A stretch of DNA of 64,000 bases from an uncultured Candidatus Saccharibacteria bacterium. Its GTDB lineage: Bacteria; Patescibacteriota; JABMPQ01; JAQVVF01. The stretch spans positions 329,852-393,851 of the forward strand of contig CAZNOH010000001.1 in assembly GCA_964574655.1 (NCBI GenBank). The letters run 5' to 3'. Positions 4,389 to 62,539 of the stretch are shown piece after piece (positions within the stretch are counted from its first letter, which is position 1; each line of letters opens with the position of its first letter). The notes under the pieces are model-generated. The model was given only the letters and a program-made list of their open reading frames with translations. It was not told the origin of the DNA and ran no database searches. Both the position numbers and the translations under genes were made by a program.

Positions 4389-6032
4389 ATGTTTGATATT
4401 ATAATCAGGAATGGGACTATTGTAGATGGGACTGGCAAAGAAAAATATCAGGCGGATATTGGAATTAACCGAGATACGATTTCAGAAATTGGAAATTTGG
4501 AAAATGCCAAGGCTTTGCAGCAAATTAATGCTAAGGATTTTTTTGTTTGTCCTGGTTTTGTTGATGTCTTAAATCATTCTGATAGTTATTTTAAGCTTTT
4601 CTCAAATCCAACTTTAGATAGTTTGGCTTTGCAAGGAGTAACAACAATTATCGGCGGTAATTGTGGAACATCTTTAGCGCCTTTATCTTCTAGCTTTACA
4701 ATGAATGAATTAAATAAAAGAATGGGCTTTAAGGCTAATGTAATTACTAATCCAGCTAAAAGTGAGACGTTGTTGAAATCAATGAGAAAATGGATTGATG
4801 TTTCTGGGATTAATATTAATTGGTCTACTCTAGATGAATTTCTTGCTGTTTTAGGTAATCAAGGTCTTTCATTAAATTTTGGTACGTTGATTGGTCATAG
4901 TTCTATTAGGAGAAATCTTGTAGGTGAAAGAATTTCTGATTTATCGACTGATGAACTTACTTTTTTTAAAGAGATGATTGCTGATTCAATTCAACAAGGA
5001 GCATTAGGTATGTCATGCGGTCTTTCTTTTAGTCATGAGAATTTTGTAGAAACTAGCGAGCTTATGGATTTAGCTTCGGTATTGCATGAGTCAGATTCCA
5101 TTATGTCATTTCATCTTCGAAATGAGGCAGAAAGAATTGTTGAATCAGTATCAGAAGCAATCGAAATTGCCAAGAGGAGCGGAGTCAGAGTCGAAATATC
5201 GCATTTTAAGATCAACGGAAAAGAAAATTGGGATAAGATTGACGAAGTTTTATCTTTAGTCGAAAGGGCGAGTGAAAAAGGCTTGGAAATAAATTTTGAT
5301 TTTTATCCTTATGATTTTGGCTGGGCGGTTTTTTATCAATTCTTGCCAAGCTCGTTATATATCGGCGGTAGAGAAAAAATGTTGAAGCGTTTATTAGACG
5401 AAAGAGAGAGACCGGCAATTCTAAATTCTTTGAAGGAAATTTCATTAAGAGTTTCTGATATGATAATTGCTTATAGTCCTTTTAATAAAGCATTTGTGGG
5501 CAGAAGTTTTTCTGACATTGCCAAATCTCAGGGAATAAGTTTGGAAGAAGCAATAATGATGGCTTTGATTGACTCGCGCGGCCATTTAATTTGTTTTGAT
5601 AAAGCATTGGATGAAAAGAATATTGTTAAACAGATAAAACATCCATTGGGAATCTTGTCTTCTGATGGCAGTGGTTTTTTTGAAGAAGAAAATAGAAATG
5701 GCCAGCTTGTTCATCCGAGATGTTTTGGAGCATTTACGCGTTTTTTGGGTAAATATGTTCGTGATTCTAGGTTTTTGGAATGGGAGAAGGCAATCCAAAA
5801 AATTACTTCAATGCCAGCTTTAAAATATGGAATAAATAATAGAGGTTTCCTGCAGGCTGGATTAAAAGCTGATATTGCAATTTTTGATCCAAATAAAATC
5901 ACTGATATGGCAACAATAGAAAATCCTTTTCAATATTCTCGGGGAATAAAATATGTTTTAGTGAATGGGAAGTTCGTAGTTAGCGATTCTAAACATACAA
6001 AAGAATTGGCTGGTGAGATAATTAGAAAATAA
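4389..6032 (+). CDS. amidohydrolase, N-acyl-D-amino-acid deacylase (D-aminoacylase)-like
   Basis: N-term MFDIIIRNGTIVDGTGKEKYQADIGINRDTISEIG...FVCPGFVDVLNHSD typical of D-aminoacylase family; first metal His apparently replaced (NHSD). Confidence 0.55.
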   Translation: MFDIIIRNGTIVDGTGKEKYQADIGINRDTISEIGNLENAKALQQINAKDFFVCPGFVDVLNHSDSYFKLFSNPTLDSLALQGVTTIIGGNCGTSLAPLSSSFTMNELNKRMGFKANVITNPAKSETLLKSMRKWIDVSGININWSTLDEFLAVLGNQGLSLNFGTLIGHSSIRRNLVGERISDLSTDELTFFKEMIADSIQQGALGMSCGLSFSHENFVETSELMDLASVLHESDSIMSFHLRNEAERIVESVSEAIEIAKRSGVRVEISHFKINGKENWDKIDEVLSLVERASEKGLEINFDFYPYDFGWAVFYQFLPSSLYIGGREKMLKRLLDERERPAILNSLKEISLRVSDMIIAYSPFNKAFVGRSFSDIAKSQGISLEEAIMMALIDSRGHLICFDKALDEKNIVKQIKHPLGILSSDGSGFFEEENRNGQLVHPRCFGAFTRFLGKYVRDSRFLEWEKAIQKITSMPALKYGINNRGFLQAGLKADIAIFDPNKITDMATIENPFQYSRGIKYVLVNGKFVVSDSKHTKELAGEIIRK

Positions 6033-36295: not shown

Positions 36296-36296
36296 T

Positions 36297-36375
36297 GTCA
36301 TTCTGAGGCCGTAGCCGAAGAATCTCGTGATTTTTGTTTAACGACGGGATCCGTAGCTTTGGCTCAGGATGACAG
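36297..36375. repeat. 79-nt hairpin element with 12-bp terminal inverted repeats TGTCATTCTGAG/CTCAGGATGACA (copy B, inverted relative to A)
   Basis: Approximately reverse complement of copy A. Confidence 0.55.
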
Positions 36376-38405: not shown

Positions 38406-38861
38406 ATGATGGTCCAAGAAGTAATGACGAAGAAAATTATCAAGATAAAAAAAGGCACGACTTTGCGCGAGGCGGCAAAAATTTTGATTAAAAATGAGAT
38501 TACCGGCGCTCCAATTGTTAATGAAAAAGACAAAGTAATTGGTATTATTTCGGAAAAGAATGTTTTTAGAGCTTTGTATCCGAATTATGAAGAATTTTAT
38601 ATTGATTTAGATGTAATTACAAAGCCAAATAATTTGGATGACAGATTATTAAAAATAGTTGATTTGAAAGTTGAGGATTTTATGGTAAAAGATGTTGTTT
38701 CAGCCTTGCCTTCTGATTCAGTAGTAAAGGTTGGCGGAATTATGATGGCAAGAGGGATACACCGTGTTTTAGTAGTAGATGAAAAAGAAATTTTGTTGGG
38801 TGTTGTTAGTAGAAGAGATATTTACCCCGCAGTGTTCAAAATGTTATTAAATATAAAATAA
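38406..38861 (+). CDS. CBS domain pair protein
   Basis: Two CBS motifs (VIGIISEKNVF, LLGVVSRRDI). Confidence 0.7.
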   Translation: MMVQEVMTKKIIKIKKGTTLREAAKILIKNEITGAPIVNEKDKVIGIISEKNVFRALYPNYEEFYIDLDVITKPNNLDDRLLKIVDLKVEDFMVKDVVSALPSDSVVKVGGIMMARGIHRVLVVDEKEILLGVVSRRDIYPAVFKMLLNIK

Positions 38862-38871
38862 AGCGTAAATT

Positions 38872-38900
38872 GTAGAGACGCCCAAATTGGGCGTCTGTAC
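38872..38900. repeat. REP-like GTAG palindrome GTAGAGACGCCCAAATTGGGCGTCTGTAC (identical copy at 62511)
   Basis: Perfect 11-bp stem; related copy GTAGAGACGTTGCAATGCAACGTCTCTAC at 635..663. Confidence 0.6.
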
Positions 38901-38912
38901 AAAAATAAAAAA

Positions 38913-39731
38913 ATGCCTGAACTTCCTGAAGTAGAAACAATTAAACGACAGCTTGAGACAAAAATAGTTGGCAAAAAAATTAAGAATGTTGAAGTTCGTT
39001 ATGCAAAACTATTGAACATGCTTGAAAAAGAATTTGTTGCTCAGGTTGTTGGAAGTAAAATTATTGCCCTGAAAAGAAGGGCAAAACTTTTAATTTGGGC
39101 ATTATCTGAAAATAAGAATTTGGTTTTTCATTTAAAGATGGCTGGCCAGGTAATTTGGGCTGGAAAAAATCCTAATCCTGCAAAATATACTTATGTTATT
39201 TTTACTTTGTCAGATGGTAATACGGTATTTTTTAATGATAAGAGAAAGTTTGGCTGGGTAAAATTATTAGATTATCAAGAATTTGAAAAGTTATTATTAT
39301 CATATGGTCCTGAGCCATTGGATAAAAATTTTACTTGGCAAAATTTAAAAGAGATATTGTACAAGAAAAAAAGAATCAGAATCAAGCCATTATTAATGGA
39401 TCAAACATTATTGGCTGGAGTTGGAAATATTTATGCTCAAGAAGCTTGCTTTTGCGCTGGAATTTTGCCAGAAAGAAAGGCAGGCGATATAGTTGACAAA
39501 GAAATTGAAAAGCTATATGCTTGCTTGAAAAAAGTATTATTGGAATCTATCAAACATCATGGTACTTCAGCTGATGCCTATGTTGATGCATTAGGGAACA
39601 AAGGCAGTTTTGAAGCTAGATTAAAAGTTTATGGACGACAAGGCGAGAAATGTTATCGATGTGGCGGAATAGTTGAAAAAATGAAGCTTGGTGGACGTGG
39701 AACTTATTATTGTCCGAAATGCCAGACTTAG
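38913..39731 (+). CDS. mutM: formamidopyrimidine-DNA glycosylase
   Basis: N-terminal MPELPEVE, C-terminal zinc finger CYRCGG...YYCPKCQ. Confidence 0.8.
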   Translation: MPELPEVETIKRQLETKIVGKKIKNVEVRYAKLLNMLEKEFVAQVVGSKIIALKRRAKLLIWALSENKNLVFHLKMAGQVIWAGKNPNPAKYTYVIFTLSDGNTVFFNDKRKFGWVKLLDYQEFEKLLLSYGPEPLDKNFTWQNLKEILYKKKRIRIKPLLMDQTLLAGVGNIYAQEACFCAGILPERKAGDIVDKEIEKLYACLKKVLLESIKHHGTSADAYVDALGNKGSFEARLKVYGRQGEKCYRCGGIVEKMKLGGRGTYYCPKCQT

Positions 39732-39766
39732 TTCGAAAGTTATAAAGTTATAAAGTTATAAAGTTT

Positions 39767-39800
39767 GCCTGCTGAAAGGCAGGTATTTAAATATTTTGTT
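39767..39800 (+). terminator. terminator GCCTGCTGAAAGGCAGG + T-rich, preceded by AGTTATAA x3 tandem repeat
   Basis: Hairpin read directly. Confidence 0.45.
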
Positions 39801-39866
39801 CTTTGACAACGAGGCTTGAAAAAAGCAAAATTGTTGAATCGCGCTAAGCCAAGAGAGGAGGGCGAG

Positions 39867-40049
39867 ATGGAAACACCATGGATATATATTGCAATTTTTG
39901 TTGGCATTTTAGTTTTTGTGTTTATTTCGGTTATGGTTGATATTTTTTCAGAGAGTTCTGGAAATGAGATTTCCAAATCATGTAGTTGCACGGGTAACGA
40001 AAGATGTCCAATTTGTTCATCTTATCTTGATAGTTTTGGTAATCATTGA
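39867..40049 (+). CDS. small membrane-anchored Cys-rich protein (KSCSCTGNERCPICSSY); second homologous Cys module continues in +1 frame to 40200
   Basis: Strong SD AGAGGAGGGCGAGATG; TM helix; duplicated CxC-x5-CPxC module split by frame change. Confidence 0.4.
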   Translation: METPWIYIAIFVGILVFVFISVMVDIFSESSGNEISKSCSCTGNERCPICSSYLDSFGNH

Positions 40050-40161
40050 AAAGTCCGGATCTTGCACTTGTGAAACAAGCTATGAAAGTTGTCCTTATTG
40101 TAGTGCTTATACCAAATTCAGCGAATGTGTTCTAGCTAAAAAACTATTTGTTTGTCTAGCT

Positions 40162-40227
40162 GGTTGCAGAGTCCTCTCTGCAACCACATTATCGCGTTGA
40201 TTTGGTTTCAGAGAGGACTCTGAAACC
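40162..40227 (+). other. twin perfect hairpins GGTTGCAGAG-TCCT-CTCTGCAACC and GGTTTCAGAG-AGGA-CTCTGAAACC with mutually complementary loops
   Basis: Read directly; G/T difference compensated in stem. Confidence 0.45.
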
Positions 40228-40298
40228 AGCATCGCAACAGATTAAATGAATTTGGTATTATAAAAGTAGTTTCGGCAATCATAGATAATAAGTTCTTT

Positions 40299-40321
40299 AA
40301 CTGGTTTTTACCAGTTTTTTG
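40299..40321 (+). terminator. rho-independent terminator AACTGG-TTTTTA-CCAGTT + T6
   Basis: Hairpin + T-run. Confidence 0.5.
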
Positions 40322-40328
40322 TTGCCTC

Positions 40329-40420
40329 ACTCGAATATTTTTTCGAATATAAGCGAATACTTTTTCGAATATTTGAAAATAGATTAGAATATTATTCGAA
40401 AATAAATTAGAGTGAGATCT
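40329..40420 (+). promoter_or_regulatory. TTCGAATAT x5 direct-repeat array enclosed by CTCACTC/GAGTGAG inverted repeat, upstream of prfB
   Basis: ctcgaatattttttcgaatataagcgaatactttttcgaatatttgaaaatagattagaatattattcgaaaataaattagagtgag. Confidence 0.4.
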
Positions 40421-40461
40421 GTTTTTGACCAGTTTTTTTTATTATGCTATCTTGGTAGTAT

Positions 40462-41545
40462 ATGCAGGATTTATTAACAAAATTAGAAAAAATAAAACAG
40501 GACATTGCGAAAGTAATGGATCGTCTTTGATATTGTTAGTAAAAAAGAAAAAATAGCAAAATTAGAAAAAGATATCCAAAGCCCTGATTTTTGGAAGAAT
40601 ACCAGAAAAGCAAAAGCAATAATGCGTGATCTTGATAGTCTGAAAAAATTTGTTGAATTGTGGGAAGGATTAATGCTTGAAACAAAAGATTTAATTGAAG
40701 TGATTGATATTGCAAATGAAGACGAATCGTTGAAAAAAGAAATAGAACAGCGTTTTCTAAAGCTGAACAAAAAATTTGAACAGCATGAATTTGAAATAAT
40801 GATGTCCGGTGATTATGATTTGAACAATGCAATTTTGATGATTCATTCTGGTACTGGTGGTACAGAAGCGCAGGATTGGGCAGAGATGTTACTTCGAATG
40901 TATTTGCGATATTGTGAAAAAAGAGATTGGCAGACTGAAATTTTGGATAAAATAATGGGCTCGGAGGCAGGAATAAAAAGTGCTATAGTAAAGGTGACTG
41001 GAAATTATGCTTACGGCTATTTGAAGGCTGAAGCTGGAATTCATCGTTTGGTTCGTCAATCGCCGTTTGATTCTGATCATGCTAGGCACACATCTTTTGC
41101 TTTAGTTGAAGTGATTCCAGAATTGTCTTCTGATGTCAATATAAAAATAGATTCAAAAGATTTACGAATTGATACATATAGATCAAGTGGAGCAGGAGGT
41201 CAGAGTGTTAATAAAACAAGCTCAGCAGTCAGAATTACTCATTTGCCATCAGGCATTGTTGTTGCTTGTCAGAATCAAAGATCTCAGATTCAGAATAGAG
41301 AAACAGCAATGATGATTCTGAAATCAAGGCTTTATGAAAAAGAATTAAAAAAGAAAAAAGAAGAAAAAGCAAAATTGCGAGGCGAGCATCTTGAGGCAAG
41401 TTGGAGCAATCAAATCAGATCTTATGTCTTGCATCCGTACAAAATGGTAAAAGATCATCGGACAGAATATGAAGTTGGTGATGCAGAAGCTGTGTTAGAT
41501 GGTGATTTAGATGGATTTATTGAGGCGTTTCTGAAGATAAAATAA
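40462..41545 (+). CDS. prfB: peptide chain release factor 2 with programmed +1 frameshift at CTT TGA (40525..40530)
   Basis: Frame-0 MQDLLTKLEKIKQDIAKVMDRL then TGA; +1 frame continues DIVSKKEKIAKLEKDIQSPDFW...; SPF and GGQ motifs downstream (SPFDSDHARHTSF, SGAGGQSVNKTSSAVR). Confidence 0.85.
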
Positions 41546-51045: not shown

Positions 51046-51062
51046 AATAAATTTGGAGGGGA

Positions 51063-51087
51063 GGGGTTGAAAATATTCAACCCCTAC
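51063..51087. repeat. REP element GGGGTTGAA-AATA-TTCAACCCCTAC immediately upstream of RAYT
   Basis: Same family as 49473. Confidence 0.6.
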
Positions 51088-51095
51088 AGATTATA

Positions 51096-51671
51096 ATGGA
51101 ATATAATTTTTCAAAACGTCGTCGTAAATTAATTAGGTTGAAAGGATTTGATTATTCTAGCGATAATTGCTACTTTATAACAATTTGTACGAAACAAAAG
51201 GAATGTTTGTTTGGCAATATTATAAATCAGAAAATGGTATTAAATAATGCCGGAGTTATTGCAAAAAAATATTGGTTAGAAATTCCAAAGCATTATCAAT
51301 ATATAATTTTAGACGAATATATTGTGATGCCAAATCATATTCATGGAATTTTGGTGATCGATAAAAAATATCCGGTAGGGGTTCAATATATTGAACCCCT
51401 ACGCCAAAATAAATTTCAAAAAATTATATCTGGTTCAATTGGTGCGATCGTTCGTGGTTATAAAATCGGAGTGACAAAATGGTATAGACAAAATACAAGA
51501 TATAAAATTGTTTGGCAAAGATTATTTTATGACCACATTATCCGCGACGAACGATCGTTAAATATTATTCGAAATTATATTAAAGAAAATCCCAAAAATT
51601 GGTTATTTGATAGGAACAATATCGAGGACATCGGATTATTGAATGCAATAATTGAAATCAAAAAATTATAA
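51096..51671 (+). mobile_element. REP-associated tyrosine transposase (RAYT, IS200/IS605-like Y1 HuH transposase)
   Basis: IRLKGFDYSSDNCYFITICTKQKECLFG, HuH MPNHIHGIL, C-terminal WQRLFYDHIIRDERSLNIIRNYIKENP signature; REP copy embedded in-frame at 51375..51402. Confidence 0.75.
51375..51402. repeat. REP element GTAGGGGTTCAATATATTGAACCCCTAC inserted in-frame within RAYT CDS (encodes VGVQYIEPLR)
   Basis: Perfect 12-bp palindrome arms; frame checked (offset 279 from start). Confidence 0.65.
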
Positions 51672-52702: not shown

Positions 52703-52724
52703 TTTGATAAAGAATGCAAGTTTG

Positions 52725-52757
52725 TAGGGAACAAATATTTTGTTCCCTATTTTTTTG
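52725..52757 (+). terminator. rho-independent terminator TAGGGAACAAA-TATT-TTGTTCCCTA + T7
   Basis: 11-bp stem + T-run. Confidence 0.65.
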
Positions 52758-62073: not shown

Positions 62074-62514
62074 ATGCGGATCGAAAGCGTATTTCAAAAT
62101 GGAGAAAAAATTCCTTCCAAATATACTTGTGATGGCGAGAATATTAATCCGCCTTTAAAATTTAGCGATGTACCAGAAAATACAAAAAGTTTGGCTATTA
62201 TTTTTGATGATCCTGATTCACCGTCAGGTACTTGGACTCATTGGACTATTTTTAACATTGATCCAAAAGTAATTGAAATAATAGAAAATAATGTGCCTGA
62301 AAATTCTGTTTTAGGCAAAACAACTTTTAGTGATGTTAAATATGGCGGACCTTGTCCTGGATCTGGCGAGCATCGATATGTTTTTAAGTTGTTTGCTTTG
62401 GATATGGTGTTAGATCTAAAACAAGGGGCTGATATTTCTGAGTTAGAAAAAGCAATTGAGGGACATATAATAGAAAAAGCGGAGTTGATGGGAAAGTATG
62501 AACGAATTATGTAG
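62074..62514 (+). CDS. YbhB/YbcL family PEBP-like protein
   Basis: DDPDSPSGTWTHW and GPCPGSGEHRYVFKLFALD motifs. Confidence 0.7.
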   Translation: MRIESVFQNGEKIPSKYTCDGENINPPLKFSDVPENTKSLAIIFDDPDSPSGTWTHWTIFNIDPKVIEIIENNVPENSVLGKTTFSDVKYGGPCPGSGEHRYVFKLFALDMVLDLKQGADISELEKAIEGHIIEKAELMGKYERIM

Positions 62515-62539
62515 AGACGCCCAAATTGGGCGTCTGTAT
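62511..62539. repeat. REP-like palindrome GTAGAGACGCCCAAATTGGGCGTCTGTAT; its GTAG supplies the TAG stop of the PEBP gene
   Basis: Identical to 38872 copy. Confidence 0.6.

Follow-up and report, generated by a model that had tools for sequence, protein, structure and literature searches.

A small four-cysteine membrane-protein gene, a split duplicate of its 3′ part and a REP-doublet-like palindromic repeat probably overlie one another at the fpg–prfB locus of a Patescibacteria genome

The window analyzed here is a stretch of 64,000 nucleotides with a GC content of 32%, and positions refer to it unless a contig is named. Its nearest relative in the genome collection was the Patescibacteria MAG JAQVVF010000004.1, whose Fpg was 86% identical to that of the window. 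The genes surrounding the locus are all on the plus strand, in the order CBS-domain protein gene (38406–38861), fpg/mutM (38913–39731), a small gene designated ORF1, prfB encoding RF2 (40462–41545), and then ftsE and ftsX. ORF0 of prfB (40462–40530) contains the canonical programmed +1 site, CTT TGA (40525–40530), which is also kept in a remoter relative (L008). Since the RF2 gene depends on a frameshift at UGA, this codon serves as a stop in the source organism.

ORF1 (39867–40049, plus strand) follows fpg. It starts with ATG at 39867, stops with TGA at 40047–40049, and encodes 60 amino acids comprising a single hydrophobic transmembrane (TM) helix followed by KSCSCTGNERCPICSSY. Its C-terminal unit, KSCSCTGNERCPICSSYLDSFGNH with the stop codon (39975–40049, plus strand), is referred to as unit 1. 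A strong Shine-Dalgarno (SD) sequence, GAGAGGAGGG (39853–39862), lies 4 nt before the ATG, and a sigma-70-like promoter, TTGACA-17-CAAAAT, was predicted at 39803–39831, where the block GTTCTTTGACAACGAGG is common to the window and the relative L010. A consensus scan located an intrinsic terminator, AACTGGTTTTTACCAGTT, at 40299–40316, with a T-run behind it (whole feature, 40299–40320). Both the SD-bearing ORF with a TM helix ending at 40049 and the terminator at 40299 had been recognized in the initial annotation. The ORF1 transcript would accordingly run from the promoter at 39803 to the terminator at 40299.

Homologous peptides were found at the orthologous locus in relatives. In L001, L006, L012, and L013, fpg is followed by a gene for a membrane protein of 164–170 amino acids and then by one for a 68-amino-acid protein. 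ORF1 and the latter, in which a TM helix is combined with KLSACTCTKNEKCAICRS, share 37.5% identity over 48 amino acids; the Fpg proteins of L001 and L006 are 86–88% identical to that of the window. L010 and L011 (Fpg, 86%) encode a multi-TM protein of 187 amino acids from ATG 4315, or 196 amino acids as called, that ends in QCTCDGGEMCDACRYYYNHINQ and the stop codon. ORF1 is orthologous to the 68-amino-acid gene of the former four and to the C-terminus of the 187/196-amino-acid protein of L010. Alignment of four sequences (ORF1, the peptides of L001 and L006, and the C-terminus from L010) showed the four cysteines (CxC-x5-CxxC) to be invariant, and in L001, L006, and L010 the stop codon lies 0–8 nt ahead of a shared terminator motif, CTTTAACTGG...CCAGTTTTTT. 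Because relatives with 86–88% identical Fpg carry a homologous protein with a TM helix and CxCx5CxxC in the same place and with the same terminator, ORF1 is a genuine, lineage-restricted gene for a predicted small membrane protein with a TM helix and a four-cysteine knuckle. In remoter relatives the content of the fpg–prfB gap is different: L008 has an unrelated 113-amino-acid ORF there, and in L009 no gene is called. Pfam gave no meaningful match for ORF1 and its relatives, large-database searches revealed nothing of the family beyond the fpg–prfB locus, and a profile of the four known members matched only one 68-amino-acid cluster, from the same locus. Two giant repeat proteins retrieved by an exhaustive HMMER search with ORF1 were rejected as spurious; they contain no cysteine, and their scores were sums of many 3-bit hits.

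The fpg–prfB interval (L001 4876–6840; L010 4103–4878) was found to be a variable array of one to five small membrane-protein genes per genome, each with a similar GGAGG leader and with the same terminator motif behind it. There were also signs of fusion and fission, the 196-amino-acid protein of L010 corresponding to the pair of 170- and 68-amino-acid proteins of L001. Judging from this gene content, the interval is a fast-turnover array of predicted small membrane-protein genes, a hot spot where such genes appear to be duplicated, fused, broken, and invaded. In the window, the ORF1 terminator is followed by a second terminator-like motif (40419–40438), which is orthologous. The stretch separating the two (40321–40418) is a window-specific expansion, not present in L001, in which TTCGAATA palindromes are abundant and which includes a 22-nt tandem duplication (40332–40375) and a 24-nt inverted repeat (40326–40349/40393–40416).

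Behind ORF1, in its +1 frame, lies the module KSGSCTCETSYESCPYCSAY (40051–40110, plus strand), which is 57% identical to the ORF1 module over 21 amino acids. This frame is open up to the TGA at 40198–40200, as had been noted from the start. The corresponding tail, YKSSFGNHR followed by TAA, was found in the third frame at 40259–40288 (plus strand); it matches the ORF1 tail LDSFGNH, and its stop, 6 nt before the terminator motif, is located where the genes of the orthologues end. Module and tail together are referred to as unit 2. The matches were evaluated against 20,000 sequences generated from the downstream DNA by a first-order Markov chain, which keeps dinucleotide frequencies on average. 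The scores of the module and tail matches to unit 1 were each reached by 0 of the 20,000 composition-preserving resamplings, the tail being accepted on this protein-level resampling and on its position; as an unrestricted DNA match, it had been put at chance level by a manual estimate. When 148 nt (40111–40258) are deleted, the reading ...CSAY-YKSSFGNHR and stop is restored, yielding KSGSCTCETSYESCPYCSAYYKSSFGNHR and the stop codon, which is collinear with unit 1 and 58.6% identical to it over 29 amino acids.

The C-terminal unit of ORF1 was therefore tandemly duplicated in the source lineage. CPxCSxY..SFGNH is common to both units and missing from the orthologues. A second module was not found in the relatives L001, L006, L010, L012, and L013; the contig of L011 is cut off before the gene end. 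The reading of the initial annotation as a frameshifted gene or a duplication is supported, the second module being a diverged tandem duplicate of the ORF1 C-terminal unit. Unit 2 retains all four cysteines, and its three length differences relative to unit 1 are all in frame. This pattern argues for translation during much of its past, most simply as a second in-frame module.

At present, unit 2 carries two lesions. One is its offset of 76 nt (3n+1) from unit 1, combined with the TGA at the junction; the other is the 148-nt insertion, which swaps the native tail for a frame ending inside a repeat. Deletion of one T in CATTGA (40044–40049) would fuse both frames into a 110-amino-acid ORF (...SFGNH-EKSGSC...), and a protein search with the fused two-frame peptide gave 0 matches. 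An assembly error might have explained the frame break. The Logan assembly of SRR13723393 (L005), however, is identical to the window over 38854–41108 (2255 nt, zero differences), indicating that the break is not an assembler artefact, with the qualification that both assemblies may share one read set. The +1 frame is open for 49 codons, a length equalled by only 3% of the resampled sequences, which suggests that the inactivation was recent or incomplete. Unit 2 is most likely untranslated today, and annotation of the +1 ORF as a gene is not warranted.

A recoding event had also been proposed. Programmed +1 frameshifting at CAU-UGA-A (40044–40050) would yield the two-module protein when RF2 is scarce. 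The precise location of the UGA stop at the unit junction, the rarely matched open frame with its intact four-cysteine module, and the presence of prfB with its own canonical site directly downstream are all consistent with such an event. However, tRNA-His cannot re-pair from CAU to AUU, and the site (GGT AAT CAT TGA A) has no SD-like stimulator upstream. The relatives have neither a second module nor a similar junction, their single module ending at the terminator, and the shifted frame ends inside the inserted repeat with the module's own tail in the third frame. Frameshifting at this site is therefore considered very improbable. It is just as hard to credit that the second module belongs to a separate overlapping gene starting from the ATG at 39964 (78 amino acids). 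That ATG and an open frame do exist, and the product would have the layout of a hydrophobic segment, VQFVHLILIVLVII in the +1 frame of ORF1, followed by a Cys module; yet a proper SD is missing from this start, NNT-rich codons are expected to yield such a hydrophobic run when read in the +1 frame, in the L001 orthologue that frame is open for 29 codons only, and the C-terminus would come from the inserted repeat.

The segment of about 148 nt that parts the unit 2 module from its tail (40111–40258) is bounded by an imperfect inverted repeat of 23 nt (40109–40131/40236–40258; 83%), the outer 12 nt of which are perfect. The breakpoints coincide with this inverted repeat, and possible TAT direct repeats occur at the edges (40108–10 and 40256–58). 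An IS630/Tc1-type TA duplication was considered and rejected; excision of 146 nt leaves the frame unrestored, whereas excision of 148 nt (TAT duplication) or 151 nt restores it. No second copy of the outer 148-nt unit (ATACCAAATTCA...TGAATTTGGTAT) was found in the sequences compared, and the outer segment could be a local rearrangement instead of a transposed element.

Inside this segment lies a 72-nt core with two hairpins (40159–40230, plus strand), resembling a REP doublet. Hairpin 1 (40161–40186, plus strand) contains GGTTGCAGAG-TCCT-CTCTGCAACC exactly at 40162–40185, and hairpin 2 (40203–40228, plus strand) contains GGTTTCAGAG-AGGA-CTCTGAAACC exactly at 40204–40227; a variable spacer (40187–40202, plus strand) separates them. 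The two perfect 10-bp hairpins of the initial annotation are exact, and each stem reaches 11 bp by an added T-A pair. The 3′ end of the +1 ORF, said to overlap both hairpins, overlaps the first but not the second, as its stop lies in the spacer between them. The hairpin pattern occurs nowhere else in the 64-kb window, where 0 matches are expected by chance. Because each hairpin is the other in inverted form, the entire 72 nt can also fold as one long hairpin; its arms (40159–40194/40195–40230) are 86% complementary, with a perfect 11-bp hairpin within each arm, and RNA structure prediction gave the single long hairpin as the minimum-free-energy structure.

A scan of public metagenome contigs with the pattern TGGTTNCAGAG-N4-CTCTGNAACCA retrieved three loci, all from Ga0172379. 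Each contains the full unit of 72–73 nt, GCTGGTTGCAGAR-TCCT-YTCTGCAACCAC, spacer, TGGTTTCAGAG-AGGA-CTCTGAAACCAGC (L002 3677–3749, L003 3585–3656, and L004 1388–1460). The three copies were 82.7–90.5% identical to the window copy by blastn, and their flanks were unrelated. They come from contigs of one metagenome, possibly of more than one genome, and the same metagenome also contains the relative L010. The L002 copy lies 40 nt behind the stop of a gene of unknown function, the L003 copy between a cupin-like gene, whose stop is 3 nt away, and the next start, 22 nt further on, and the L004 copy within the leader of an intein-containing dnaB. This dnaB (L004 1470–4325) encodes 951 amino acids, apparently including the intein. 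No copy was present at the orthologous fpg–prfB locus in any relative examined. Searches of 147 kb with nhmmer and a covariance model found no further copies, and the hairpin pattern had 0 matches in viral contigs; a weak model match in a glycosyltransferase coding region (L003 45–131) was judged to be due to chance. The occurrence of further copies in unrelated contexts, together with the absence at the orthologous locus, indicates that the hairpins form a dispersed repeat, known from four copies at four unrelated loci, one of them in the window. Neither an empty-site pair nor a target-site duplication was found for the 72-nt core. Integron attC sites share an R′/R″ core consensus. They were considered in view of the cassette-like array and rejected, as this consensus was absent by eye and the other copies lie between housekeeping genes.

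In the alignment of the four copies, columns 7–32 and 50–75 are nearly invariant or compensated, and columns 34–49 are variable. Over the four copies, pairing amounts to 98.9% in the small hairpins, where both partners of three pairs have changed, and to 87.5% in the long hairpin, which has zero compensated pairs and is weakened by every change. L003 has kept both small hairpins, although its long inverted repeat has ceased to be detectable. As pairing is conserved in the small hairpins and not in the long one, the conserved units are the two small palindromes. The compensated G/T difference between the stems (G-C vs. T-A), pointed out in the initial annotation, is real and is retained in all four copies, as expected if the copies descended from one master copy.

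These data bear on the proposal that the locus is a small regulatory RNA or a type-I toxin-antitoxin system, in which ORF1 would be a membrane toxin controlled by an RNA with kissing hairpins. ORF1 is indeed a 60-amino-acid peptide with a single TM helix, and a 10-nt match joins 39946–39955 to the hairpin arms. The match, however, does not exceed chance (E 0.2), a scan of the minus strand at the locus for promoter-like sites gave none, and the hairpins are a multi-locus repeat missing where orthologous peptide genes occur. The loops are complementary (TCCT and AGGA), as originally described, because hairpin 2 is an inverted copy of hairpin 1; the kissing interpretation is not supported, the complementarity being a by-product of inversion that is lost in L003, where the loop is AAGA. 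No Rfam 15 family matched at the gathering score, and a permissive search gave chance-level miRNA-like and FasX hits far below threshold. The regulatory reading fails on the two points on which the initial annotation had hung it, since a single indel joins the frames and the hairpins are absent in relatives. Such a system can hardly be credited here.

A different function for the host deserves somewhat more weight. The twin hairpin might be kept because it acts in RNA, as a 3′-end or stability element or as a processing site, or because it provides a dimeric DNA-binding protein with a paired operator. In that case its spread would be secondary, and it would not be a selfish mobile repeat. The compensatory changes that preserve each small hairpin, the retention of the stem difference, and the order of the hairpins, hairpin 1 preceding hairpin 2 along the direction of the flanking genes in 4/4 copies, are consistent with this explanation. 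On the other hand, the copies differ in where they lie relative to genes (3 nt or 40 nt past a stop, a 5′ leader, and a dead coding remnant), the hairpins have no T-run behind them and no Rfam match, and four copies provide weak statistics. We consider it unlikely as an account of its own; it overlaps with the explanation favored below, as domesticated REP elements do both.

About 11 kb from the twin hairpin, the window encodes a putative RAYT-like Y1/HUH transposase homologue of 191 amino acids (51096–51671, plus strand) with an HIH motif and YIKENP. It matched NCBIfam REP_Tyr_transpos (NF047646) with an E-value of 1.7e-13 but a score below the cut-off; the scores of the protein, 50.7 and 18.9 bits, fall short of the respective curated cut-offs of 80 and 23 bits. 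Its HUH (HIH) and YIxxNP motifs could be aligned with TnpA-REP of E. coli (PDB 4ER8). An AlphaFold model computed without an alignment had a mean pLDDT of 34.7 and was unusable. A syntenic orthologue lies beside the NAPRTase gene in L008 (8488–9054); a 187-amino-acid protein adjoining NAPRTase in L009 was rejected as a homologue, with only 18% identity. A perfect 28-nt palindrome, GTAGGGGTTCAATATATTGAACCCCTAC, was observed within the RAYT-like coding sequence (51375–51402) and is kept in L008 (8758–8791).

Several other palindromes were found. The RAYT-like gene is flanked by GTAG/CTAC palindromes (51062–51087 and 52724–52749) whose sequence is distinct from that of the twin hairpin, and no twin hairpin was found beside this gene. 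REP-like singlets of the form GTAGAGACG-N-CGTCTCTAC and variants, with GTAG...CTAC feet, make up a family that includes these flanking palindromes; further members occur at 636–662, 38872–38900, and 62511–62539 of the window, as well as in L010 (3960–3990), L011 (2589–2619), and L003 (3056–3084). The three in the window are of the GTAGAGACG...CGTCT(C/G)TA type, and one of them is immediately upstream of fpg; in L010 and L011 a singlet lies just after fpg. A GTAG/CTAC tetranucleotide is conserved at the foot of E. coli-type REPs. The singlets in the window carry the GTAG foot. It is not conserved in the twin hairpin, the four copies of which have CTAG, GGAG, GTAG, and AATC as 5′ flanks. A third palindromic repeat of about 80 nt, CTGTCATCCTGAGCC...GGCCTCAGAATGACAG, is found in the window (36296–36375, minus strand) and in L002 (5180–5260), 76.5% identical between these two unrelated intergenic regions. 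L002 also contains CIRCE-like inverted repeats (TTAGCACT...AGTGCTAA) at 5120–5170, upstream of hrcA.

The motif and profile matches make the RAYT-like gene a candidate trans-acting partner of the palindromic repeats of this genome. A more specific proposal, that this transposase mobilises the 72-nt twin hairpin as an element of REPIN type, is put forward tentatively as a possibility with the balance of probability against it. If true, it would mean that a working REPIN–RAYT system in an ultra-small Patescibacteria genome has been caught remodelling the 3′ end of a fast-evolving small membrane-protein gene. A report of REPIN/RAYT systems in Patescibacteria (CPR) was not found in the literature searched, and the present data point to at least three dispersed palindromic repeat families and a syntenic RAYT-like gene in these tiny genomes.

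Taken together, the results suggest that a real small gene, a dead split duplicate, and a REP-doublet-like repeat are superimposed at this locus, which we regard as the probable explanation. The C-terminal unit of ORF1 (K..SFGNH) would have been tandemly duplicated in the source lineage, the second unit remaining coding for some time. Where the units join, the frame would be broken by 1 nt and a TGA would now stop translation after unit 1, leaving unit 2 dead, and a segment of about 148 nt with inverted-repeat ends would have parted its module from the tail and stop, which still lie beside the terminator. The twin hairpins would be the 72-nt core of this insertion, a copy of a dispersed palindromic doublet of the REPIN/REP-doublet design, namely two inverted copies of a hairpin with an 11-bp stem and a 4-nt loop around a variable spacer. 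The element may spread as single-stranded hairpin DNA by means of an HUH/Y1 transposase, for which the RAYT-like gene is the obvious candidate. In the ORF1 mRNA, it would be a structured 3′-UTR passenger that may stabilise the transcript. The locus is, on this evidence, ordinary genome wear and not a new regulatory RNA or recoding signal. A tempting false lead is thereby removed, as recoding, a small RNA, and a toxin-antitoxin function are unsupported and the "kissing" loops are the product of two inverted palindrome copies. A mildly interesting by-product is the evidence for REP/RAYT-like systems in a Patescibacteria genome.

Four known systems can be compared with the locus. Like the prfB frameshift, a real case of which lies 480 nt downstream in the window, the ORF1 junction has a UGA stop followed by a +1 frame; it differs in having no slippery CUU_U, SD stimulator, or conservation, and the frame downstream is a disrupted remnant. 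Like ORF1, type-I toxins (Hok, TisB, Fst, and the like) are small peptides with a single TM helix whose genes have a structured 3′ region, but ORF1 has a conserved four-cysteine knuckle of cytoplasmic type and no antisense partner, and it is part of the variable small membrane-protein gene array between fpg and prfB.

The resemblance to MITEs (enterobacterial RU/ERIC, PMC2759123; review, PMC3184786) lies in a short non-coding element with inverted-repeat ends in a coding region that supplies a new C-terminal reading frame and stop, here an outer 148-nt unit whose termini are inverted repeats of 23 nt, with possible direct repeats of 3 bp (TAT). In contrast to MITEs, the outer unit is known as a single copy; the repeated part is the inner 72 nt, whose arms act as terminal inverted repeats and at which no target-site duplication was seen.

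In a REPIN, two REP palindromes in inverted orientation enclose a variable spacer, and asymmetric bases at the centres show which way each points (PMC3337134). The twin hairpin differs from REPINs and their RAYTs (Bertels & Rainey, PMC3116915, PMC3337134) in its apparently low copy number (1 per 64 kb here vs. hundreds per genome), in that the RAYT-like gene is flanked by palindromes of another sequence family, and in lacking the conserved GTAG/CTAC foot, which goes unmentioned in the REPIN paper (PMC3337134). It agrees with them in having two inverted short palindromes around a less conserved spacer, in the ability of the whole 72-nt element to fold as one long hairpin, in centre bases that mark orientation (TCCT/AGGA here vs. 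TT/AA in Pseudomonas), in a length within about 70–110 nt, in its extragenic location, and in the presence of a single RAYT-like gene in the genome.
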